A DNA stretch of 64,000 nt from Deltaproteobacteria bacterium (GCA_040218735.1 JAVJQW010000058.1:82525-146524); one strand, 5' to 3'. Positions 1 to 20,583 are shown, counted from the first letter of the stretch. Numbers and translations are program-made. The notes: generated from the letters alone by a model not told the origin.

Positions 1-409
1 GTCCGTCGCGCGCGCGCGCGGCTGCTTGATCAGCGCTAGCTTGATCGGAACGTGATTTCGAAGACTTGCGAGGCCCGTCGCTGATCAGAGAAGCGTAGCG
101 CTCCCAGTTGTGGACCTTAGTTGATCGGGATTCTGGGCTTGTCTGATCAGCTACGTGATCAAGAAAGCCGGCCTCCACGTACGCCGCGAAGAGCTTCCCG
201 TCCTCGCCGCGCCACCGCATCTCCTCCTCGAGCCCCTCGGGCCCGTAGTCGGTGAGGTCGCCGTCCGAGGGCGCGACGTCGCCGGCGAAGGCGAGCAGGT
301 GAGCAGCCCAACCGATCGCCTCCGCTCGGGACACGCCGAGCGCCTCGCGCAGCTTCCGCGTCTTCGCGTGCCGCGGAAGGCTGGTCTCCAATCGAACCCA
401 CCAACCCAC
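1..409 (-). CDS. Phage replication initiator-like protein, N-terminal part (runs off window)
   Basis: My translation from GTG 409: MGWWVRLETSLPRHAKTRKLREALGVSRAEAIGW...GFLD...KVHNWERY, resembling phage replisome-organiser N-termini; not in the ORF track. Confidence 0.6.
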   Translation of the reverse strand, partial: MGWWVRLETSLPRHAKTRKLREALGVSRAEAIGWAAHLLAFAGDVAPSDGDLTDYGPEGLEEEMRWRGEDGKLFAAYVEAGFLDHVADQTSPESRSTKVHNWERYASLISDGPRKSSKSRSDQASADQAAARARDG

Positions 410-625: not shown

Positions 626-1698
626 GCCGACTTCCCTTCCGACGCACGACGTTCGAAGCCGCCGAGGGTCCCCTCGAGCTGCTTGATCGTGAAGGTCCAC
701 GGACCTTGCTCCCAGCCCTTCGGGAACGGCGGGGCCTTGACGCCCATCTCGCGCATGTCCGCCGCGCAGCGCGCGATCGCCTGCCCGAGCTCGCACTTCT
801 TCAGGAGCGTCCGCGCCTTCGAGATCGACGCCTCCGCCTGCGACGGGGACATCTTCGACGTGTCGGCGAGGTTGGCGCTCCATGCCTTCTTCGCCATCGC
901 CCGCGCGGCGTCCGTGTCGCCCTCGGTGACGTCGGCGAGTGCCTCGATCATCGCGACCTGGATCTCGACGAGCTCGACATGTGGATCACCGGCGTCCGGC
1001 TGCTCGGGCGTCGTGACGGCGCCCTCCTCGGGCTCCTCCACCGGCGTGGGGGTGTCGTCGGGCGGTGCCTCCTCAAGCGACTCGACGACGGCCTGCGCGA
1101 GCTTCGCGTCGTTGTCCTTCGCCCCGTCGTCGACCACGGTGACCGACACGACGTCGACCTCCCCGTCGAGGATGTCCTCGCCGGTGGCCATGCCGTGGAT
1201 TTGCTCCGACCACTCCTGCCGCGCGAGGCGCGACGCGCAGCGGTTCGAGAGCATGATCTCGGGCTCCGTCTTGTACTTGGCATTGCGCTGGGCGTAGCCG
1301 GCGTCGTGCGCGTCCTGGATCGTGAACGTCTTCGCGATCTCCGGACGGCCCTTCCGCTTCGAGCGCCACACCGCGCGCGTTGGCGTGGACTCCACGCACT
1401 CGAAGAACTCGCACTCGGGATGCTGACGAACGAGCGAGACGAGCAGCCACGTGTACCAGGCGGGGCGGCCGTTCACGGTGTAGAGGCCCTCGAACGCCTG
1501 GACCGCGCTGAGTCCGAGCGAACGCCCCCACATCGCGACGACGACCGCCTGCTCGGGCGTCTTGATGTGGGGGAAGATGCCGGACTGAACGATCTCCCGG
1601 CCGAGCTCCTTCAGCTCGGCGAGCGACCCGGGTTCGAAGGCGTACGGGTCGAGGGCTACGGTGCTCCGACGAGCGATTGCTTGCGGCTGCGCAGTCAT
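622..1698 (-). CDS. RecT/Red-beta-like single-strand annealing protein
   Basis: PEQAVVVAMWGRSLGLSAVQAFEGLYTVNGRP and YKTEPEIMLSNRC...ARQ motifs; acidic C-terminal region; YqaJ partner nearby. Confidence 0.7.
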   Translation of the reverse strand: MTAQPQAIARRSTVALDPYAFEPGSLAELKELGREIVQSGIFPHIKTPEQAVVVAMWGRSLGLSAVQAFEGLYTVNGRPAWYTWLLVSLVRQHPECEFFECVESTPTRAVWRSKRKGRPEIAKTFTIQDAHDAGYAQRNAKYKTEPEIMLSNRCASRLARQEWSEQIHGMATGEDILDGEVDVVSVTVVDDGAKDNDAKLAQAVVESLEEAPPDDTPTPVEEPEEGAVTTPEQPDAGDPHVELVEIQVAMIEALADVTEGDTDAARAMAKKAWSANLADTSKMSPSQAEASISKARTLLKKCELGQAIARCAADMREMGVKAPPFPKGWEQGPWTFTIKQLEGTLGGFERRASEGKSA

Positions 1699-1699
1699 G

Positions 1700-2254
1700 T
1701 CAGCGCACCACTTCCAGCGGCGACGGCGGGGGCACGTTCGCCTTCACGTTCTTCGGGTTGCTCTTGCCGCCGGCGTTGGGGCTCGCCGGCTTCTTCACCT
1801 CACCCGGCTCGGGCGGGCCCGCGTCCTTCTTCGGCGTCTCCTTCTTCGGGGGCGCCGCGCCCTTTTTCTTGGGCGGGGGCGACGCGGCGTTGTCGATCTC
1901 GAGCTGGCGCTCGGCGGCGCGCATCGCGCGCGAGCTGATGACCTCCTTCGTGTCGGTGCGGATGACCTCGACCACGTTCCGGTCGAAGCTCATGCGCTCG
2001 ACGCAGATGACCTCGCGCTCCTCGCGGCGCGCGATGAGCACGCGGTGCGCGGCGGCGATCTGCTCGCGGATCTCCTTGACGAGGCCGTTGTAAGTCGAGA
2101 CGGCTTCGGAGCGCTTCGCGATCGTCGCGTCGCATCGCGACATCAGCTCGAGCAGCTCGTCCGTCTTCTGCTGGATCTCCTTGTCGGTGAGGTCGACCGG
2201 GAGGTTCTTGATCACCTCGCGCTCGCGGACGTCTTCTTTGTTGGGTGCGGTCAT
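1700..2254 (-). CDS. Phage hypothetical protein (coiled coil, Lys/Pro-rich tail)
   Basis: ATGA-coupled ORF with GGAG RBS. Confidence 0.7.
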   Translation of the reverse strand: MTAPNKEDVREREVIKNLPVDLTDKEIQQKTDELLELMSRCDATIAKRSEAVSTYNGLVKEIREQIAAAHRVLIARREEREVICVERMSFDRNVVEVIRTDTKEVISSRAMRAAERQLEIDNAASPPPKKKGAAPPKKETPKKDAGPPEPGEVKKPASPNAGGKSNPKNVKANVPPPSPLEVVR

Positions 2255-13680: not shown

Positions 13681-14013
13681 TCAGTCGAAGATGAAGACGA
13701 CTTCGTCGGCGCGGACCCAGCCGAGCTCGTCGCGCACGACGGACTCGACGAAAGCGCGGTCGGTCCTCAGCGCGTGCGCCTGGCGGGCGAGCACCGTGTT
13801 CTCGGCTTCGAGCCGCGCGTTCAGCGCACGCACCTTCGTGAGCTCGGCCTTCAGCAGCTCGTGGCGCGCGATGCCGTCGTCGCCGACGATCGCCGCGCCG
13901 ACGAAGAACACGACGAGCCCCGCGCCGAGGAACGACGACAGACGCATCATGAAGCTGGGGCGCGGGCTCTCCACGGGTTCGAGGAGCCTAAGGCCGCCGG
14001 GATCGGCCGGCAA
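13681..14013 (-). CDS. ftsB: Septum formation initiator FtsB/DivIC (start uncertain)
   Basis: TM, GDDG, coiled coil, VRDELGWV...E. Confidence 0.8.
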   Translation of the reverse strand: MPADPGGLRLLEPVESPRPSFMMRLSSFLGAGLVVFFVGAAIVGDDGIARHELLKAELTKVRALNARLEAENTVLARQAHALRTDRAFVESVVRDELGWVRADEVVFIFD

Positions 14014-14075
14014 CTTTTTGGGATCGGGTCGAAGGGGCTGCTCGGGCTTTCAGTCTGGGCTTTCAGTCCCGGCGC

Positions 14076-14579
14076 TCAGTCGGGGCGGGCCACGAGCGTC
14101 TCGAGCGCTTCGGTGAGCACTTCGGGCGGCCACATCCCGTCCATGCGCGCGGCGATGTGGCCGCGTTTGTCGAGGAGGACGGAGGTCGGGCTGACGGAGA
14201 TCGGCCCGAACGGTCCGAACTGGGAGGTGAACGCGCGCGGGTCTTCGACGCGGCCGACGTGGAACGGGAACTCGAACGTGTCTTCGAAGATGCGGACCAT
14301 CTGCTGGTCCTCTTCGACGATCGCACAGACGACCTCGACGTCTTCCTGCCACCGCTCGCGCATCGTCTCGAACAGCCGTAGCTCGACGAGCGCCGGGTCG
14401 GACCAGGTCCCGAAGATCGACACGATGACGACCTTGCCGCGGAGCCCCGCGACGTTGAGCGGCGCACCGTCCGCGCCGATGAGGCGGAGCGCGACGGGCC
14501 CTTCCGGGAGCGCGGGTCCCGCGTTGGAGCTCGTGGCGCAGGCGGACGCCAGCGTGAGGAGGAGAGCGGCGCGACGCAC
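14076..14579 (-). CDS. TlpA/ResA-like redoxin-fold lipoprotein lacking CxxC
   Basis: Lipobox ASAC; LRGKVVIVSIFGTWSDPA; PTSVLLDKRG. Confidence 0.75.
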   Translation of the reverse strand: MRRAALLLTLASACATSSNAGPALPEGPVALRLIGADGAPLNVAGLRGKVVIVSIFGTWSDPALVELRLFETMRERWQEDVEVVCAIVEEDQQMVRIFEDTFEFPFHVGRVEDPRAFTSQFGPFGPISVSPTSVLLDKRGHIAARMDGMWPPEVLTEALETLVARPD

Positions 14580-15220
14580 TAATCGTCGGCGTACCGCCAG
14601 GACTTGGTCCGGAGCAACCATGCATCGTGGCCGAAGTAGACGCCGGAGAACGGGCGCCCGGTGTCGCGCTCGTAGAACGTGAGGTGCGGGTAGCCGGCGG
14701 CGGTCAGCGTGAGCGGGAGTGCGAAGGTGCCTTCGCCGGCTTCGACGTCGACGCTCGCGGGGTTGGCCGCCGCGTCGGGCTCGGTGGTCGTGACCGAGAG
14801 CAGGAGCTTCGCCCGCGCGCGGGAGGTGAGGCGGTAGCGGCCGTGCACCACGTAGTGGCCGCCGACCTTCAGGGCCGAGTGGTCGCCGACGATCCGGTCG
14901 ACGGTGATGGAGTCGCCGGGCGCGAGCTCATTCGCCCCGCGCTCGAACTCCACCTCGCCGTCGAGGTCACGGGACGAGACAGGATCCTCGTCGAGCTCGG
15001 CGCCAACGACGAGGTCGAGGTCTGCGTCCCCGACGGCGGCACCGACCTCCGCCGCGGGCGTTGGACGCGTCTGCTCGCCGCACTTCGGCTCGCCCTGCAG
15101 GCGCGCGATCTCGGCGCGTAGCACTCGGATCTCGTCTTTCGTCTGCGCGTGCTCGTACACGATCACGCCGGTCTGCAGCGCGACCAGTGCGACGAGGGCG
15201 CCGGTGAGGGGGAGCTTCAT
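14579..15220 (-). CDS. Membrane-anchored hypothetical protein
   Basis: MKLPLTGALVALV N-terminal TM; coupled to the next gene. Confidence 0.65.
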   Translation of the reverse strand: MKLPLTGALVALVALQTGVIVYEHAQTKDEIRVLRAEIARLQGEPKCGEQTRPTPAAEVGAAVGDADLDLVVGAELDEDPVSSRDLDGEVEFERGANELAPGDSITVDRIVGDHSALKVGGHYVVHGRYRLTSRARAKLLLSVTTTEPDAAANPASVDVEAGEGTFALPLTLTAAGYPHLTFYERDTGRPFSGVYFGHDAWLLRTKSWRYADD

Positions 15221-15263
15221 CGCCGCCGATCGTACCGTCGCGGCGTCGCGTTCGTCAGCTGGG

Positions 15264-17171
15264 TCAGGGCCCGCGGAGGAGTCGCCGGAGATCGTCCGGC
15301 CAGGGCGCTTCGAACACGCGGCCGTCGGGGAGCACGAGGCGCCGCGCGTGAAGCGCGAGGCGCCCGGCCTCCGCCCCCCCGTAGGTCGTGTCCCCGAGGA
15401 TCGGGAGTCCGAGGTGCGCGAGGTGCACGCGCACTTGGTGCCGCCGCCCGAAGCGCGTGGTGACCCAGACCTGGCCGATCGCTCGCCGCACGGAACGCCG
15501 GGACGCACCGACGGTCGTCACGTCTCCGAGGGCGCCGGTCGCCGGGGATTCGTTCGTCGTGGCGTCGACGCTGCTCGGCGGTGCTGCGCCCGTGCTTTTG
15601 TCGTTCGTCGTGTCGCGGTTGCTCGTCGTCGCGTCGCGGTTGCTCGCCGTCGCGTCGCGGTCGCTCGGCGGTGCTGCGCCGGCGCTGTTGTCGTTCGTGG
15701 TCGCGTCGCGGTCACTCGCCGTCGCGTCGCGAGCGCTTGGCGGTGCTGCGCGCGTGCTGTTGTCGTTCGTCGTCGCGTCGCGGTTGCTCGCCGTCGCGTC
15801 GCGGTCGCTCGGCGGTGCTGCGCCGGCGCTGTTGTCGTTCGTGGTCGCGTCGCGGTTGCTCGCCGTCGCCTCGCGAGCGCTCGGCGATGCTGCGGGCGTG
15901 CTGTTGTCGTTCGTCGTCGCGTCGCGGTCGCTCGCAGTCGCGTCGCGAGCGCTTGGCGGTGCTGCGCCCGTGCTGCTGTCGTTCGTCGTCGGGTCGCGGT
16001 CGCTCGCCGTCGCGTCGAGGCCGGTTCGCGATGCTGCGCCCGTGCTGTTGTCGTTCGTCGTCGCGTCGCGGTCGCTCGCCGTCGCGTCGAGGCCGGTTCG
16101 CGATGCTGCGCCCGTGCTGTTGTCGTTCGTCGTCGCGTCGCGGTCGCTCGCGGTCGCGTCGCGAGCGCTCGGCGGTGTTGCGCGCGTGCTGTTGTCGTTC
16201 GTCGTCGCGTCGCGGTCGCTCGCCGTCGCCTCGCGAGCGCTCGGCGATGCTGCGCGCGTGCTGTTGTCGTTCGTCGTCGCGTCGCGGTCGCTCGCGAGGC
16301 CGCTGGCCGGTGCTCTGCTCGCGCTCTTGTCAGGCGTCGTCGCGTCGTCGGTGGCCGCCGGAGCGCCGTACGCCGGCTTAGCGTCTCCGTGGGCCACTCC
16401 GCGTGGGCCGGCTGCCGTTTCGTAGCCGCTCGGCGGTGTTATCCTCGCGCGCGTCCCCTCGTCGTCGGGCGCGCTTCGCGTGGCGCCCTCGGCGGCGCGC
16501 TCCACGTAGGAGCGCGCGGGCAGGGCGTCGGGGCCGTCGCCGACGCGCACCCGGGGGCCGGCGTTGACGATGCCTGCTTCGACGGTCACCGCGCCGTTCG
16601 CGAAGACGGCGTCCAGGTCGCCGTCGACGATCGCGTCGTAGACCTTCTCGACGCGGTGCGCCCGGAACGCTTCGCGCAGCTCGGCGCGCGCGCGCTTGGT
16701 CTTGGCGAACAGGACGACGCCGGACGTCGCCGTGTCGAGGCGGTGCACCGCGCCGCCCTCGAGCGGGGGCCCGGCGTCGGCGATCGCGGGGCACAGCGCG
16801 ACGGCCGCGTTCAGGAGCGTGCCGATCTCGTCCGGGTGCACGGGCGTCGTCGGGAGGCCGCTCGGCTTGGCGAGGACGAGCAGCGCGTCGTCTTCGTGGA
16901 GCCGGACGACCCGACCCAGCAGGGACGGATCGGGACGCACCCTCGCCTGGGCTCGGAGCGTCCGCCGGACCACCACCACGGCGCCCGCCTCCGCGCGATC
17001 CCCCGCGGCGACGCGCCGCCCGCCGACCTGGATCTCGTTGGCCTTGAGGCCCGCGCGGATCTCACGCACGGACGCGTCATGCCCGCGCGCGACGAGCGCT
17101 GCGCGGATCGCGCGGTCCCAGCGGTCGTCGGCGTGTTCGGCGTCGAGGGTGAATTCGATCGCGTCGGCCAT
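15264..17171 (-). CDS. RluA/RluD-family pseudouridine synthase with a large internal repeat insertion
   Basis: S4-like N-terminus, KPSGL, VHRLDTATSG, GRRHQVRVHL, PILGDTTYG, LALHA. Confidence 0.92.
   Translation of the reverse strand: MADAIEFTLDAEHADDRWDRAIRAALVARGHDASVREIRAGLKANEIQVGGRRVAAGDRAEAGAVVVVRRTLRAQARVRPDPSLLGRVVRLHEDDALLVLAKPSGLPTTPVHPDEIGTLLNAAVALCPAIADAGPPLEGGAVHRLDTATSGVVLFAKTKRARAELREAFRAHRVEKVYDAIVDGDLDAVFANGAVTVEAGIVNAGPRVRVGDGPDALPARSYVERAAEGATRSAPDDEGTRARITPPSGYETAAGPRGVAHGDAKPAYGAPAATDDATTPDKSASRAPASGLASDRDATTNDNSTRAASPSAREATASDRDATTNDNSTRATPPSARDATASDRDATTNDNSTGAASRTGLDATASDRDATTNDNSTGAASRTGLDATASDRDPTTNDSSTGAAPPSARDATASDRDATTNDNSTPAASPSAREATASNRDATTNDNSAGAAPPSDRDATASNRDATTNDNSTRAAPPSARDATASDRDATTNDNSAGAAPPSDRDATASNRDATTSNRDTTNDKSTGAAPPSSVDATTNESPATGALGDVTTVGASRRSVRRAIGQVWVTTRFGRRHQVRVHLAHLGLPILGDTTYGGAEAGRLALHARRLVLPDGRVFEAPWPDDLRRLLRGP
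15545..16296. repeat. 72-bp coding tandem repeat (9 full copies plus degenerate ones)
   Basis: CTGTTGTCGTTCGT-like anchor every 72 bp from 15685 to 16261; unit ASDRDATTNDNSTxAxxxSARDAT. Confidence 0.95.
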
Positions 17172-17183
17172 GGGGCCCGCGGG

Positions 17184-17762
17184 TCAGCGACGCGGCTTCG
17201 GGCCGGGTCGCCGGGGAGCCGAGCGTGAGGGCCTCGGCGCGCCGCGTGACGGGCGACGCGGCCCGGGGCCGCGCGAGCCGGGTTGGGGGCGCGGGCTGTT
17301 CCGCGGCGGCGTCTGCTGCGCACGGGGCGGCGCACCTCCGCCGGTCGTCTTGCGGGGCGCGGCCGTCAGCGGACCGCCACCGTGCGGGACCGGCTTGCCG
17401 TCGATGTCCATCTTCGGCTCGATGCCCCGCACCGCCTCCGGGGTGAGCACGTACCGCTTCGACGGCCGCCCGGCGCGCGCCATGCTGAACGCGATGATCC
17501 GGCCGATGGTCTGGACGTCGATCGAGTCGACCTCCGTACCCCACCGGTCCTGCGCGATCTCCCAGAGCGTCTTGCCCAGAACCTGACAGAACCAGGGGCC
17601 ACCGACCCGCCGTTTGATGAGGAAAGTGGTGAGCTCTTCCTGGGTGAGGGCGCCGTCCCTGTCGGCGTCGAATGGCCTGAGCATCTCGGTGATCTCTTCC
17701 GCCGAGAGCACCTGTCCGTTCGCCAGGCGGCGAAGTTTGATGGGTAGGTCTAGGCCGGGCAC
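17184..17762 (-). CDS. EF-hand protein with Arg/Pro/Gly-rich C-terminal tail
   Basis: FDADRDGALTQEE canonical EF-hand loop; tail PGSRGPGPRRPSRGAPRPSRS. Confidence 0.75.
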   Translation of the reverse strand: MPGLDLPIKLRRLANGQVLSAEEITEMLRPFDADRDGALTQEELTTFLIKRRVGGPWFCQVLGKTLWEIAQDRWGTEVDSIDVQTIGRIIAFSMARAGRPSKRYVLTPEAVRGIEPKMDIDGKPVPHGGGPLTAAPRKTTGGGAPPRAQQTPPRNSPRPQPGSRGPGPRRPSRGAPRPSRSAPRRPGPKPRR

Positions 17763-17826
17763 CGCTTCCTACACGGGTACACCACGGCCCAAGGGTGCGT
17801 CCAGTCGAGGGCGCCTCGATCCCCGG

Positions 17827-18774
17827 TCATTCTGCGACATAAGCCAGCGTCCGGTCGCCCACGGTCAGGTCCACACGAAGGTGTCGCGGCTCGTCCTCGT
17901 CGCGGGCGAGGCGGAAGTGCAGGACGAGCTCTTCACCTTCCCGAACGGGCCGCGGCGCGAACGCGAAGTAGCTCTGGGACCAATGGGTCTCCGCGAAGTC
18001 GCTGGACGTGTCGAGCACCACACCCTCGGCGAGGGTCGCGACGAACGATCCGACGAAGCCGGAGAGCACACCGTCGCGCATCACCGTGTAGCGCACCGTA
18101 TCCTCGACGAAGGGATCGTCGGCGCTGGCGGTCGCCAGGTCGAGCGCGACGAGCGTCGCGGGGTCGGCGAGACGTGCCGCCGGCTCCACGCGGAGCTGCT
18201 GGACGCGGCCCTGCTCCAGCTCCTTGTCCTCGAGTGACGACATGTCGAGGCCGTGCACCGGTGTGCGCCAGAACCCGGGGCCGTCGTGGCCGTAGAGGAC
18301 GGGGTCGTCGACCGGCGCGAGCTGAAGCGCGACGCGGCTGGGGAGCATCTGCCCGCCCTCCGCGAGGTTGTTGTCGCGCGCGACGAGGACATCGTCGAGC
18401 ATCCCTTCGACGAAGGCGAGGTGCCCGAGCCACTCGCTGACGAGGACGTTGGCCTTCTCGGGCAGCTCGAGCTCGGCGGCCGGGCCCTGGAGCACCTTCA
18501 CGCGATCGGTCAGCCCGTTGGCCTTCACCAGGTTCGCGGCGGTCTTGGCGATGTCCGCCTGGTCGATGGCGTACACCTGCCGCGCGCCGGCCCGCGCGGC
18601 GAGCATGGCGAGGATGCCGGTGCCCGTGCCGACGTCGAGGACCACGTCTTCGGGCTTCACGACGGCGCGGATGGCCTTGGCGAACGCATCCGTCCGCCTC
18701 CGGTCCGCCACCATGCGACGCTGCAGCTCGAGATCGCCGTAGCGCGAGAAGTAGTACTCCACGTCCGCCGGCAT
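17827..18774 (-). CDS. Protein arginine N-methyltransferase-like (PRMT1/type I-like)
   Basis: YYFSRY, MVADRRRT, VLDVGTGTGIL, SEWLG...EGML double-E loop, VHGLDMS, THWSQ loop. Confidence 0.9.
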   Translation of the reverse strand: MPADVEYYFSRYGDLELQRRMVADRRRTDAFAKAIRAVVKPEDVVLDVGTGTGILAMLAARAGARQVYAIDQADIAKTAANLVKANGLTDRVKVLQGPAAELELPEKANVLVSEWLGHLAFVEGMLDDVLVARDNNLAEGGQMLPSRVALQLAPVDDPVLYGHDGPGFWRTPVHGLDMSSLEDKELEQGRVQQLRVEPAARLADPATLVALDLATASADDPFVEDTVRYTVMRDGVLSGFVGSFVATLAEGVVLDTSSDFAETHWSQSYFAFAPRPVREGEELVLHFRLARDEDEPRHLRVDLTVGDRTLAYVAE

Positions 18775-18817
18775 ACGTGTTGATCTCGCGGCGAGCAAAG
18801 ACTATTCGCGGACACGC

Positions 18818-20419
18818 ATGAAGCGCCTGGTGTTGGTCGGTGGACTGTCTTGCCTGATCGCGTGTGGAGCGTCGCCGTCGAGCAGCGATCCCGCGGCGCC
18901 GCCGGTGGCGACCAGCTCGGTGAGCGCGGCGCCCCCGCCCTCCCCCGAAGTGAACGCGGAGCCGGCGGCCGATCCGAAGACCGCGCACGTCCCGGTGATC
19001 GCGCTGTCCGACTTCCACGGTTGGCTGCTCCCGCTCGAGCCGAAGGGGTACCCGCGGTACTTCGGCGGCGTCGCGAACCTCGCCGGGATGCTCCAGCACA
19101 AGGAGAAGCTCGCGAAGGGTGACGCGATCATCCTCGACAACGGCGACATGTGGACGGGCCCGACGGAGTCCACGCTCCTCCGCGGCGAGTCGGTCATCCA
19201 GGCGTACAACGAGATCGGCTTCACCGCGGCGAACGTCGCGAACCACGAGTTCGACTTCGGACTGGAGATCCTCCGGGCGCGCGTGAGCGAGGCGAAGTTC
19301 CCGTTCCTCGGCGCGAACATTGTCAAGGCCGGCACCACCGAGTCGCCTGACTTCGTGAAGCCGTTCACGATCGTCGAACGCGACGGCGTGAAGGTGGGGG
19401 TGCTCGGGTTGAGCTACGTCGGGACCCCGAAGACGACGCTCGCGAAACACGTCAAGGACCTCGAGTTCAAGGGCTACAAGGAGACGCTGGAGGCGTTCGT
19501 GCCCAAGGTGCGCGCCGCCGGCGCGAACGCCGTCGTGGTGCTCTTCCACGACGACGCGTCGATCGCGAAGGGCGTCCTCGAGTCGATGCCCGACCTGAAG
19601 GTCGCCGCTGTCGTCGCCGGCCAGAACCACCGCAAGGAGCAGTACACCGTGCGCGGGATCCCGATCGTGAACCCGGGGCCGTTCGGTCGCAGCTACGTGC
19701 GTTTCGACCTCGCGATCGACCGCGGCTCCAAGCAGCTCACGGGCGTGAAGCACGAGATCGTCGACATCACCGGTGACGTCGGCGCGCCGCCCTATCCGCC
19801 GTCGCCGGCGCTCTTGGCGATCGCCGAGGCCGCGCGCCAGAAGGCGACGCGCGGGATCTCCGAGCGTGACCTCGGGCGCCTGTCGCAGCCGCTCCCGGTG
19901 GGGACGTTCGCGAGCTCGCCGCTCGGCAACTTCGTCGTCGACAGCTGGCTCACCGCCATCCCGGACGCCGACTTCGCGATGCTCAACCACGGCGCGCTCC
20001 GCCAGCCGCTCGGCAAGGGTGCCGTCACGGTGGGCGATCTGCTGAGCGTCATGCCCTTCGAGAACAACCTCTACGTCGTGACGCTGACCGGCGAGCAGCT
20101 CGCGTCGCAGCTCGCGATCGACGGCCCGATCGTCGGCGGCATGACGTGGAGCTACCGCGAGCGGAACGACCGACGCACCGTCGTCTCGATGATCGACCAG
20201 CGCGGCAAGAAGATCCGCCGCAACAAGAAGTACCGGATCGTCATCCTCGACTTCATGTACACGGGCGGCGATGGCTTTCAGTTCAAAGAGCTCGACACCG
20301 CGCCGATCGACAGCGGGCTGTCGTGGCGCGAGCCGGTGATGCGCACGCTCCGCACGGCCGAGGCCACGCGCCGCGAGGTGAAGGTTCGCACCGGCGCTCG
20401 CGCGCGACGCGTGCGCTGA
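18818..20419 (+). CDS. 5'-nucleotidase / metallophosphoesterase lipoprotein
   Basis: Lipobox LIAC; SDFHG, DNGD, ANHEFDFG, NHGALR, MPFEN, GGDGF. Confidence 0.92.
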   Translation: MKRLVLVGGLSCLIACGASPSSSDPAAPPVATSSVSAAPPPSPEVNAEPAADPKTAHVPVIALSDFHGWLLPLEPKGYPRYFGGVANLAGMLQHKEKLAKGDAIILDNGDMWTGPTESTLLRGESVIQAYNEIGFTAANVANHEFDFGLEILRARVSEAKFPFLGANIVKAGTTESPDFVKPFTIVERDGVKVGVLGLSYVGTPKTTLAKHVKDLEFKGYKETLEAFVPKVRAAGANAVVVLFHDDASIAKGVLESMPDLKVAAVVAGQNHRKEQYTVRGIPIVNPGPFGRSYVRFDLAIDRGSKQLTGVKHEIVDITGDVGAPPYPPSPALLAIAEAARQKATRGISERDLGRLSQPLPVGTFASSPLGNFVVDSWLTAIPDADFAMLNHGALRQPLGKGAVTVGDLLSVMPFENNLYVVTLTGEQLASQLAIDGPIVGGMTWSYRERNDRRTVVSMIDQRGKKIRRNKKYRIVILDFMYTGGDGFQFKELDTAPIDSGLSWREPVMRTLRTAEATRREVKVRTGARARRVR

Positions 20420-20583
20420 GCTCGCGTCGGCGGCTGCGCCTCTCCCCCGCCGCGCCCGCGCGCGCATCACGCCGCGCTGTCATCCCCTCCGGCCGGATGG
20501 CACCACCGGTGAAGAGACAACTCGACGGATGCGTCGCGACGGACGCGGGCGCACACGCGCGGTTCGGTTGTCGAGGCGGGCGC

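Follow-up and report, generated by a model that had tools for sequence, protein, structure and literature searches.

A protein arginine methyltransferase gene beside genes of an EF-hand protein and a pseudouridine synthase in an uncultured myxobacterium

The genome of an uncultured myxobacterium contains three co-directional genes on the minus strand, encoding, in this order, a protein arginine methyltransferase (PRMT), a small EF-hand protein (EF) and a pseudouridine synthase of the RluA/RluD family. The arrangement raises the question of whether a methylating enzyme is encoded here together with its own substrate. This was proposed in the initial annotation, where EF, with its RG tail and its place in the same operon, was considered a possible cognate substrate of PRMT or a Ca2+-sensing partner linking Arg methylation to RNA modification. 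The window analysed is the whole stretch of 64,000 nucleotides in which the locus lies; positions of the features are given in Table 1.

Table 1. Features of the locus (positions in the window, unless residues are indicated)
Feature	Position	Strand	Remarks
PRMT	17827..18774	-	315 aa
PRMT/EF spacer	17763..17826	-	64 bp; 6-bp GC hairpin, without T run
EF-hand protein (EF)	17184..17762	-	192 aa, GTG start
EF-hand-pair domain of EF	residues about 1-120	-	N-terminal to basic disordered tail
Canonical 12-residue Ca2+-binding loop DADRDGALTQEE (predicted)	17634..17669	-	EF residues 32-43
Pro/Arg/Gly-rich disordered tail of EF	17187..17399	-	71 aa, net charge +17
Tail-end motif PRRPGPKPRR of EF	17187-17216	-	C-terminal motif across 35 rows
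EF/synthase spacer	17172..17183	-	12 bp; ribosome-binding site not evident
Pseudouridine synthase	15264..17171	-	635 aa
Catalytic HRLD of synthase	16734-16745	-	residues 143-146; invariant in 18 sequences
In-frame 335-aa insertion in synthase catalytic domain	15480..16484	-	A/T/D/S-rich, net charge -15
Insertion core, 72-bp tandem repeat	15623-16295	-	9.3 copies; TRF, 90% matches

The locus and its three proteins

The common orientation of the genes and the gaps of 64 and 12 bp, reported earlier, were confirmed by ORF listing and direct reading, and the identities assigned to the three products proved right by profile and homology matches. Since all three have homologues in relatives, they are genuine genes rather than chance ORFs. 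The PRMT ORF is listed as 17827..18798; a start at the ATG at 18774 gives 315 aa and fits relatives beginning with MP..VEYYF. The sequence AGGAAG, read directly, lies in the PRMT/EF spacer 2 bases ahead of the GTG start of EF. A consensus scan of positions 15000-19100 detected no promoter-like and no terminator-like sites, which says little at such a high G+C content, and an Rfam scan of positions 14000-20500, with E-values up to 0.1, gave no matches. An RNA-library contig of 496 nt (run X22), about 91% identical and originating from a relative, spans the PRMT/EF junction at 17569-18057; it weakly hints at co-transcription in that relative and does not show a single transcript. The run covers parts of the stretch only, at about 85-91% identity, and the uncovered parts are uninformative. 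A small ORF is present between the synthase and redoxin genes.

PRMT is predicted from its motifs to be an intact eukaryote-type, type-I-like arginine methyltransferase. Its C-terminal beta-barrel/oligomerisation subdomain is represented by Pfam PRMT_C at residues 161-303 (7.6e-15, 55.7 bits against a cut-off of 27). In the PDB search PRMT3 is the best solved relative, with an alignment that covers residues 7-312 (5.1e-45), and PRMT6 is matched at about 1e-42. SAM-binding motif I, VLDVGTGTG, begins at residue 45, and its residues D47, G49, G51, T52 and G53 do not vary among 14 sequences. The double-E loop SEWLGHLAFVEGM (SEWLG..VEGM, residues 113-125) aligns to SEWMG..ESM of PRMT3; both E114 and E123 are invariant in the 14 class sequences, as are H264 and W265 of the THW loop at residue 263, while T263 is nearly so. 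Methylation of protein arginines by PRMTs of the canonical kind is regarded as a eukaryotic trait.

The canonical EF-hand loop previously noticed in the middle protein was borne out. The loop DADRDGALTQEE fits the EF-hand pattern, in which positions 1, 3, 5 and 12 provide ligands and position 6 is Gly, and it is conserved in the family: among 29 sequences aligned in register (6 more were missed by the anchor used), positions 1, 3 and 5 are D, with one N, in 29/29, position 6 is G in 27/29, and position 8 is L, V or I in all 29. The EF-hand_8 score (3.4e-6, 27.1 bits) is just below the 28-bit Pfam cut-off, and EF-hand_5, _7 and _1 score further below, so that no Pfam EF-hand model reaches its cut-off. 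Membership of EF among EF-hand proteins is based on the loop, on the match to calmodulin EF-hand 4 (1.4e-6) and on the structure model. The latter, with pLDDT above 90 at residues 11-100, contains five main helices, among them 21-31/41-50 and 56-74/83-95, and the paired-loop bridge of an EF-hand pair (strands 38-39 and 81-82); of its two helix-loop-helix units, one alone has a canonical loop. A Foldseek search of the model against the PDB gave no match at E <=0.001, and the top matches listed were mostly EF-hand proteins with weak E-values of 0.06-0.4.

A search of 5.8 billion proteins yielded 26 cluster representatives of the EF family, none of them informatively named, and the protein atlas returned only generic EF-hand clusters with scores below 0.9. 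Fusions of EF with the synthase or PRMT were not found among longer proteins, which by the nature of the search is weak evidence; the longer forms comprised only versions of 211-213 aa and one unrelated eukaryotic EF-hand protein.

The synthase matches PseudoU_synth_2 (PF00849, 1.3e-17, 64.9 bits against a cut-off of 26.8) and is one of 9 PF00849 matches in the genome. The RluA subfamily model TIGR00005 (1.8e-35) and the RluD model (5.7e-22) are also matched, both below equivalog cut-offs; scores and cut-offs are 78.5 and 351 bits for RluD, 62.1 and 286 for RluA, and 58.4 and 378 for RluC, with TruC below as well. The insertion in the catalytic domain reduces these scores. This tandem-repeat insertion, unmentioned in the initial annotation, has an AT skew of about -0.8 and is missing from 17/17 relatives, including those of the same genus.

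Gene order in related genomes

Gene order was compared in a class sample of 20 genomes, the same 20 at family, order and class scope, and in a phylum sample of 301 Myxococcota genomes, 281 of them outside the class. All 20 belong to one family-level group and therefore are kin rather than independent cases. PRMT and the synthase orthologue were found in 20/20 class genomes and EF in 14/20; five class genomes keep PRMT and the synthase with no EF found.

The junction between EF and the synthase is tight and conserved. In 14/14 loci with room downstream, own locus included, the gene next after EF is that of the synthase, in the same orientation. Two loci were read closely. In locus L002, EF (1498..2058) overlaps the synthase GTG ORF from position 2055 in a stop/start overlap, and in L003 the synthase GTG at 2004 likewise overlaps the EF stop. 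Insertions occur at the PRMT/EF junction, and none were seen at the EF/synthase junction.

The region around PRMT and EF is variable. PRMT directly precedes EF in 5/20 genomes (G000, G001, G003, G009 and G010); in 6/20 (G006, G007, G008, G011, G012 and G015) a Peptidase_M20 gene of the opposite strand lies between them; and in 4/20 (G005, G014, G017 and G019) a gene of the Aldedh family (aldehyde dehydrogenase) is located between PRMT and the synthase in the place of EF, which was not found. EF was also not found in G013, where PRMT and the synthase are 32 kb apart, and in 4/20 genomes PRMT and EF are on different contigs. The conserved neighbourhood expected from the initial annotation was present in a loose form: PRMT and the synthase are on one strand and no more than about 3 kb apart in 14/20 genomes, with two more broken by contig ends, and this closeness is kept in three different architectures, but direct precedence of PRMT over EF is limited to the five genomes listed. 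The latter arrangement is scattered across a poorly resolved PRMT tree and may be ancestral; in that case the two genes could at one time have formed a single operon.

The string conserved in the class consists of genes for 5'-nucleotidase, PRMT, a variable slot, the synthase, redoxin, DivIC and PhoH. As the synthase, redoxin, DivIC and PhoH genes also remain together, the synteny is regional. Beyond the class, PRMT has homologues in 82/281 genomes (102/301 in the whole phylum sample), but for EF one weak match, confined to the EF loop, was obtained among the 281 genomes. The profile scan for PRMT relatives was swamped by the generic VLDVGTGTG pattern, and among the matches listed there are only about 7 true PRMT relatives outside the class; EF, the synthase and 5'-nucleotidase are not next to them.

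These data tentatively favour, at somewhat less than even confidence, a reading in which EF and the synthase form a coupled module and PRMT is a separate neighbour in a conserved syntenic block. EF would be a small cytoplasmic protein built on an EF-hand pair, with a single canonical Ca2+ loop and a strongly basic disordered Pro/Arg tail, probably translated together with the synthase. It may act in trans as an accessory, possibly Ca2+-sensitive, anchoring the synthase on its RNA or on ribosome-assembly particles. Any such role is dispensable, since EF was not found in five class genomes keeping the synthase. PRMT, located upstream at a junction tolerant of gene insertions and more widespread than EF, would most likely be a unit of its own that acts on other substrates or on additional ones, and its closeness to EF and the synthase would be best explained by the class-wide syntenic block. 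Prediction of a complex of EF and the synthase (the pair from G007) gave a score of 0.00 and no answer, and counts neither for nor against binding.

It is also conceivable, but unlikely, that the three genes are kept together by descent only and have no shared function, EF being an unrelated small Ca2+- or nucleic-acid-binding protein merely carried on the synthase transcript. Conservation of the whole string from 5'-nucleotidase to PhoH, the kinship of the 20 genomes and the dispensability of EF are consistent with this. The stop/start overlap and the unbroken EF/synthase adjacency, retained despite only 36-63% identity of the EF N-domain among relatives, argue against it, as do the insertions, which were seen at the PRMT/EF junction and never at the EF/synthase junction.

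The tail of EF and candidate substrates of PRMT

The initial annotation described the tail of EF as disordered and containing SRG, PRR and RGA. All three are present, and disorder is predicted by pLDDT below 50 at residues 128-174. The RG character ascribed to the tail, however, is not what is conserved. In 35 family rows the tail consists of 25% P, 19% R and 12% G, with 4.5% acidic residues; the conserved feature is the C-terminal Pro-Arg motif PRRPGP(K/R)PR(R/K), and the linker is variable. RGG occurs once in 35 tails, RG averages 1.5 per tail, and 11/35 tails have no RG. RGG/RG is the known recognition motif of most type I PRMTs, and the EF tails do not show it as a family feature. By RG density EF ranks only about 3600th of 19306 crude ORFs in the genome. 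The motif PRRPGPKPRR is unique within the crude six-frame ORF set of the same genome. Two other readings of it were discarded: as an SH3 ligand, because by eye the consensus fits neither RxxPxxP nor PxxPxR, and as an AT-hook, because the GRP core is present in few members only.

RGG/GAR tails are found elsewhere in the genome, namely in an RluB-like synthase, an FtsJ-like methyltransferase, a RIO1 kinase, DnaX and a PHP protein. The RluB-like synthase (S4 and PseudoU_synth_2 domains; contig C43, 48888-51110) has a basic R/G-rich C-terminal tail with 36 RGG/GGR, and such a tail is present to a varying degree in 18 relatives. Judged by sequence, these proteins would be far better RGG-type candidates for PRMT than EF.

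It is accordingly worth considering that PRMT serves ribosome biogenesis at large and that its substrates are Gly/Arg-rich tails on enzymes of RNA modification and ribosome biogenesis, perhaps including EF; proximity to the synthase module would then reflect a shared theme and not a one-to-one pair. The RGG/GAR tails just listed point in this direction, together with the PRMT-synthase proximity that survives three architectures and the position of PRMT3, the methylase of ribosomal protein S2, as the closest solved relative. However, the RluB-like tails of the 18 relatives, all of which bear PRMT, contain only 0 to 8 RGG/GGR compared with 36 here, and the closeness may be plain synteny; this role is regarded as doubtful.

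The proposal from which the analysis started, that PRMT methylates arginines of the EF tail in Pro-Arg or RxR contexts, altering its binding and linking methylation, Ca2+ and pseudouridylation, is improbable. It is consistent with the common strand and 64-bp gap, with direct adjacency in five genomes spread over the PRMT tree, with the position of PRMT near the synthase, with the intact catalytic motifs, with an Arg-rich, disordered tail bearing a conserved end motif and, weakly, with the RNA-library contig bridging the junction. The acceptance of Pro-rich or RxR sites by certain eukaryotic PRMTs (CARM1, PRMT7) also speaks for it. The claim of a cognate substrate was nevertheless unsupported: an opposite-strand gene separates PRMT and EF in six genomes, PRMT is kept where EF was not found, in five genomes of the class and in the 82 other Myxococcota genomes, neither EF nor the synthase adjoins PRMT homologues outside the class among the matches listed, the tail is of the Pro-Arg type and poor in RG, and better RGG candidates are encoded in the genome. 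Methylation of the EF tail by PRMT is possible, though the evidence does not point to it. A bacterial counterpart of the control of ribosome biogenesis by arginine methylation, in which PRMT would methylate the Pro/Arg motif of a Ca2+-sensing EF adaptor, switching recruitment of the synthase to rRNA or assembling ribosomes, and would act as well on the RGG tails that other rRNA-modifying enzymes of the genome carry, is highly improbable.

Significance and comparison with known systems

A PRMT predicted to be intact is retained throughout the 20 genomes of one Myxococcota class, with homologues in a third of the sampled Myxococcota, and its presence in one genome with RGG-tailed RNA-modifying enzymes gives concrete candidates for a first substrate screen. 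The protein with an EF-hand and a Pro-Arg tail belongs to an unnamed family whose coupling to a pseudouridine synthase is tight; if the preferred reading of a coupled module is true, EF would be a rare bacterial Ca2+-binding partner of an RNA-modification enzyme. The one-to-one pairing of PRMT as writer with EF as substrate is at most one hypothesis among several.

With the eukaryotic type I enzymes PRMT3 (1f3l/2fyt), PRMT6 (4c03) and PRMT1 (1or8), PRMT shares near full-length alignment, motif I, the double-E loop, the THW loop and the PRMT_C barrel. In contrast to them, it is bacterial and consists of the 315-aa core only, without an N-terminal targeting domain, and the HEEM stretch of PRMT3 is replaced by QRRM. 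For bacterial PRMT relatives, the setting described in PMC3417536 is a peptide secondary-metabolite operon, whereas PRMT here is located outside any such operon. In the literature searched, these bacterial relatives are mentioned in one review passage only, and no study of a bacterial PRMT with this architecture was found.

The nearest known analogue of the proposed methylation of the EF tail by PRMT is the pair of PRMT3 and ribosomal protein S2, in which a PRMT is tied to the basic disordered tail of a ribosome-associated protein. The tail of S2 is an RG repeat, whereas that of EF is of the Pro-Arg type and almost without RGG. With calmodulin-type EF-hand proteins, of which calmodulin EF-hand 4 is the closest, EF shares the canonical DxDxDG...E loop with flanking helices and the predicted paired helix-loop-helix fold. 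Unlike these proteins, it has one canonical loop only, Pfam scores just below the cut-off, a conserved segment, GLDLPVKLRR, in its N-terminal part and a long basic tail of the Pro/Arg type, and its family is limited to one Myxococcota class in the genomes sampled.

The synthase shares with E. coli RluD, RluA and RluC the PF00849 match above the cut-off, the HRLD motif and a match to the RluA-subfamily model from near the N-terminus. It differs from them in its sub-equivalog scores, the 335-aa repeat insertion and the coupled EF-hand gene upstream, and is one of 9 paralogues. Although the tail of RluB-type synthases is part of the same polypeptide, is Gly/Arg-rich (RGG) rather than Pro/Arg-rich and is without an EF-hand, this disordered Arg-rich extension of an rRNA pseudouridine synthase in cis provides a model for the tail that EF may supply in trans.

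Gene layout, domain composition and coding features

Three neighboring genes of the window encode an arginine methyltransferase (PRMT), an EF-hand protein (EF) and a pseudouridine synthase (synthase). The ORF list, the spacers and the Pfam and NCBIfam assignments agree, and therefore the description in the initial annotation of three co-oriented genes, their identities and the two short gaps between them is correct.

Coordinates of the three-gene locus in the window and of RGG-tailed proteins on other contigs (C numbers) of the same genome, GCA_040218735.1
Feature	Coordinates	Strand	Description
PRMT	17827..18774	-	315 aa from ATG at 18774, within ORF 17827..18798
PRMT/EF spacer	17763-17826	-	64 bp
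EF	17184..17762	-	192 aa, start GTG
EF/synthase spacer	17172-17183	-	12 bp
Synthase	15264..17171	-	635 aa
In-frame synthase insertion	15480-16484	-	335 aa, residues 230-564; A/T/D/S-rich, acidic, net charge -15
RluB-like synthase (S4 + PseudoU_synth_2)	C43:48888-51110		741 aa, 36 RGG/GGR
FtsJ-like methyltransferase	C55:3738-5027		RGG/GAR tail
RIO1 kinase	C18:230409-232379		RGG/GAR tail
DnaX, PHP-domain protein, small unnamed protein	C18:84759-87113, C66:268803-270176, C35:48181-48738		RGG/GAR tails

The PRMT contains PRMT_C (7.6e-15, over the Pfam cut-off) and SAM-methyltransferase domains; its best matches among solved structures are PRMT3 (5.1e-45, residues 7-312 aligned), PRMT6, PRMT2, PRMT8, PRMT1 and CARM1. 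Motif I, the double-E residues E114/E123 and residues H264/W265 of the THW-loop are all invariant in the alignment of 14 class sequences, and by sequence the protein possesses a complete PRMT core, beyond a generic methyltransferase. Residues M21 and M125, also invariant in the 14 sequences, align to two methionines that in PRMT1 are linked to asymmetric dimethylation. The library of papers searched yielded one relevant item, PMC3417536, and no study of such bacterial PRMTs.

The synthase is represented by PseudoU_synth_2 (1.3e-17, over the Pfam cut-off), and the NCBIfam RluA subfamily model matches at 1.8e-35, under its cut-off. The motifs HRLD (residues 143-146) and GRRHQ(V/I)R are conserved in 18 sequences. 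The protein is one of nine PF00849 matches in its genome and lies below every equivalog cut-off. Its insertion, absent from all 17 relatives, including those of the same genus, has a core in which a 72-bp unit is repeated 9.3 times in tandem with 90% matches, and it gives the plus strand an AT skew of about -0.8. A DNA contig from sequencing run X2, 99.3% identical, stops 162 nt into the insertion side, and a contig from run X7, 96.6% identical, diverges from the window at 16513, near the insertion boundary.

An ORF at about 14622-15263 (minus strand; listed ORF 14579..15508), with the hydrophobic N-terminus MKLPLTGALVALVALQTG and no Pfam matches, separates the synthase from the redoxin gene; in relatives, e.g., at locus L002, the redoxin gene directly follows the synthase without an intervening ORF. 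The synthase gene of genome G006 (L002, 2043-2946) is split between two frames with a break near 2257-2264, which is a genuine lesion or else an artefact of assembly.

The PRMT/EF junction is bridged (17569-18057) by a 496-nt contig of one metatranscriptome run, with 42 differences in 489 positions; such libraries can hold DNA, and a two-gene contig, being no proof of a single transcript, is a weak hint of PRMT-EF co-transcription. A consensus scan of 15000-19100, uninformative at such high G+C (66-78% in the region), returned no promoter-like or terminator-like sites, and no Rfam family was matched in 14000-20500 (E up to 0.1).

Conservation of the locus in Kuafuiibacteriia and Myxococcota

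The family, order and class scopes returned the identical 20 genomes; therefore, this is a small set of mutually related genomes. The PRMT and the synthase orthologue were found in all 20 genomes, and EF in 14 by profile; G001 adds a 23-residue EF fragment where a contig ends. Synteny, one of the checks named in the initial annotation, holds for EF and the synthase, which follow one another in all 14 loci with room downstream, the EF stop and the synthase start overlapping in L002 and L003; direct PRMT-EF adjacency on the same strand is limited to five of the 20 genomes (G000, G001, G003, G009 and G010). A Peptidase_M20 gene on the opposite strand separates PRMT and EF in six genomes (G006, G007, G008, G011, G012 and G015), while an Aldedh-family gene stands between PRMT and synthase, with EF absent, in four (G005, G014, G017 and G019). 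In G018, PRMT-Aldedh are located on one contig and EF-synthase open another. PRMT and EF are on separate contigs in G002, G004 and G016, the PRMT contigs of which, where continuing downstream, carry unrelated genes, e.g., for a CREG/DUF2470 protein in G004; in G013, PRMT and synthase are 32 kb apart and EF was not found. Genes for redoxin, DivIC and PIN-PhoH follow the synthase both in the window and in relatives. In the PRMT tree, with 9 of 20 inner branches unresolved, the direct PRMT-EF arrangement is scattered among the others. Together these arrangements describe a single long syntenic block, in which the slot between PRMT and EF tolerates insertions and the EF/synthase junction is tight.

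Within the class, the most constant neighbor of the PRMT is the 5'-nucleotidase gene, from which it is usually divergent. In the window, the starts of the PRMT and of the lipoprotein-like 5'-nucleotidase (18818-20419, PF02872 2.3e-24) are divergent and just 43 bp apart (18775-18817).

The PRMT is much more widespread than EF, because its profile matched 102 of 301 sampled phylum genomes (E up to 1e-20), 82 of them outside the class, against 15 of 301 for the EF profile, and the non-class PRMT loci examined lack EF: neither EF nor the synthase nor the 5'-nucleotidase was found near the PRMT at loci L042-L047, L148 and L151-L159. Fourteen of the 15 EF matches belong to the class, and the sole one outside is weak (3.9e-5) and covers positions 2-48 only. 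The PRMT of L148 (G092:C37:5004-8930), from a genome assigned to another Myxococcota family, matches at 6.8e-134, like class orthologues, and falls inside their clade without the class's usual neighbors, possibly through transfer or mis-binning.

The EF-hand protein and its tail

The canonical EF-hand loop noted in the initial annotation was borne out. EF matches calmodulin EF-hand 4 (1.4e-6) via the loop DADRDGALTQEE (residues 32-43), and EF-hand_8 of Pfam scores 27.1 bits, just under the cut-off of 28. All 29 members aligned in register have Asp (in one case Asn) at loop positions 1, 3 and 5, and 27 of them have Gly at position 6; six members were not caught by the anchor, including P0024, the loop of which is degenerate by eye. 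In the structural model, for which 14 sequences were used, pLDDT exceeds 90 at residues 11-100 and is below 50 at residues 128-174. Its helices (6-14, 21-31, 41-50, 56-74 and 83-95) and short strand bridges (38-39 and 81-82) have the predicted geometry of an EF-hand pair, and the top Foldseek matches, among those listed, are mostly EF-hand proteins with E-values of only 0.06-0.4.

EF belongs to a rare family. Searching 5.8 billion proteins with its profile gave 32 matches at E up to 0.001, of which 26 are true members (E up to 2e-23), unnamed or 'hypothetical', with named sources among Myxococcota or Deltaproteobacteria MAGs; the other six are weak matches to generic EF-hand proteins. In G012 (L009, 1498-1842), the EF gene ends at TAA after 114 residues, ahead of the tail, owing to a true lesion or to an error in the assembly.

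Over 35 rows, in which some loci and family proteins (P ids) are the same protein, Pro makes up 25% of the tail on average, Arg 19%, Gly 12%, Lys 5% and the acidic residues together 4.5%. The conserved element is a Pro-Arg motif, and not one of the RG/RGG type: the 35 tails contain a single RGG in total, RG averages 1.5 per tail and is absent from 11, and each tail has about 10 occurrences of PR or RP. Most members keep the terminus PRRPGP(K/R)PR(R/K) behind a freely variable linker; therefore, the tail is under selection. High G+C, the caveat of the initial annotation, is not the whole explanation of its composition. This C-terminal motif was not found in other ORFs of the same genome (crude six-frame set, 19306 ORFs). 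In one lineage, represented by L010 (G010), P0010 and P0011, a Lys/Ala/Pro-rich PAAKPGA repeat replaces Pro/Arg in the linker and the terminal PRPRPRPGPR is retained.

Candidate methylation substrates and a proposed role of the EF-hand protein

Among the six-frame ORFs, EF ranks about 3600th by RG density. The top of the ranking is occupied by proteins with true RGG/GAR tails. Pfam confirmed the identities of the three enzymes in the table, of DnaX and of the PHP-domain protein; the small protein with such a tail is unnamed. All of these are putative PRMT substrates of the classical type. Type I PRMTs prefer RGG-type substrates, and for this reason the RGG-tailed enzymes are, by sequence, stronger candidates than EF. 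The tail of the RluB-like synthase is basic, R/G-rich and highly variable in 18 relatives, with 0-8 RGG/GGR. For the EF tail, a weaker candidate substrate of the PRMT, the one argument is gene position.

The data are best fitted by a module in which EF and the synthase are coupled, with the PRMT upstream as an independent gene. In such a module, EF would lend the synthase, in trans, a basic tail for contact with RNA or the ribosome, and perhaps would add a Ca2+ switch.

Bacterial PRMT relatives are placed by PMC3417536 in peptide secondary-metabolite operons, whereas the PRMT described here is not located in an operon of that kind. The RluB-type paralogue carries its basic tail in cis, and the EF tail may be its in-trans counterpart.
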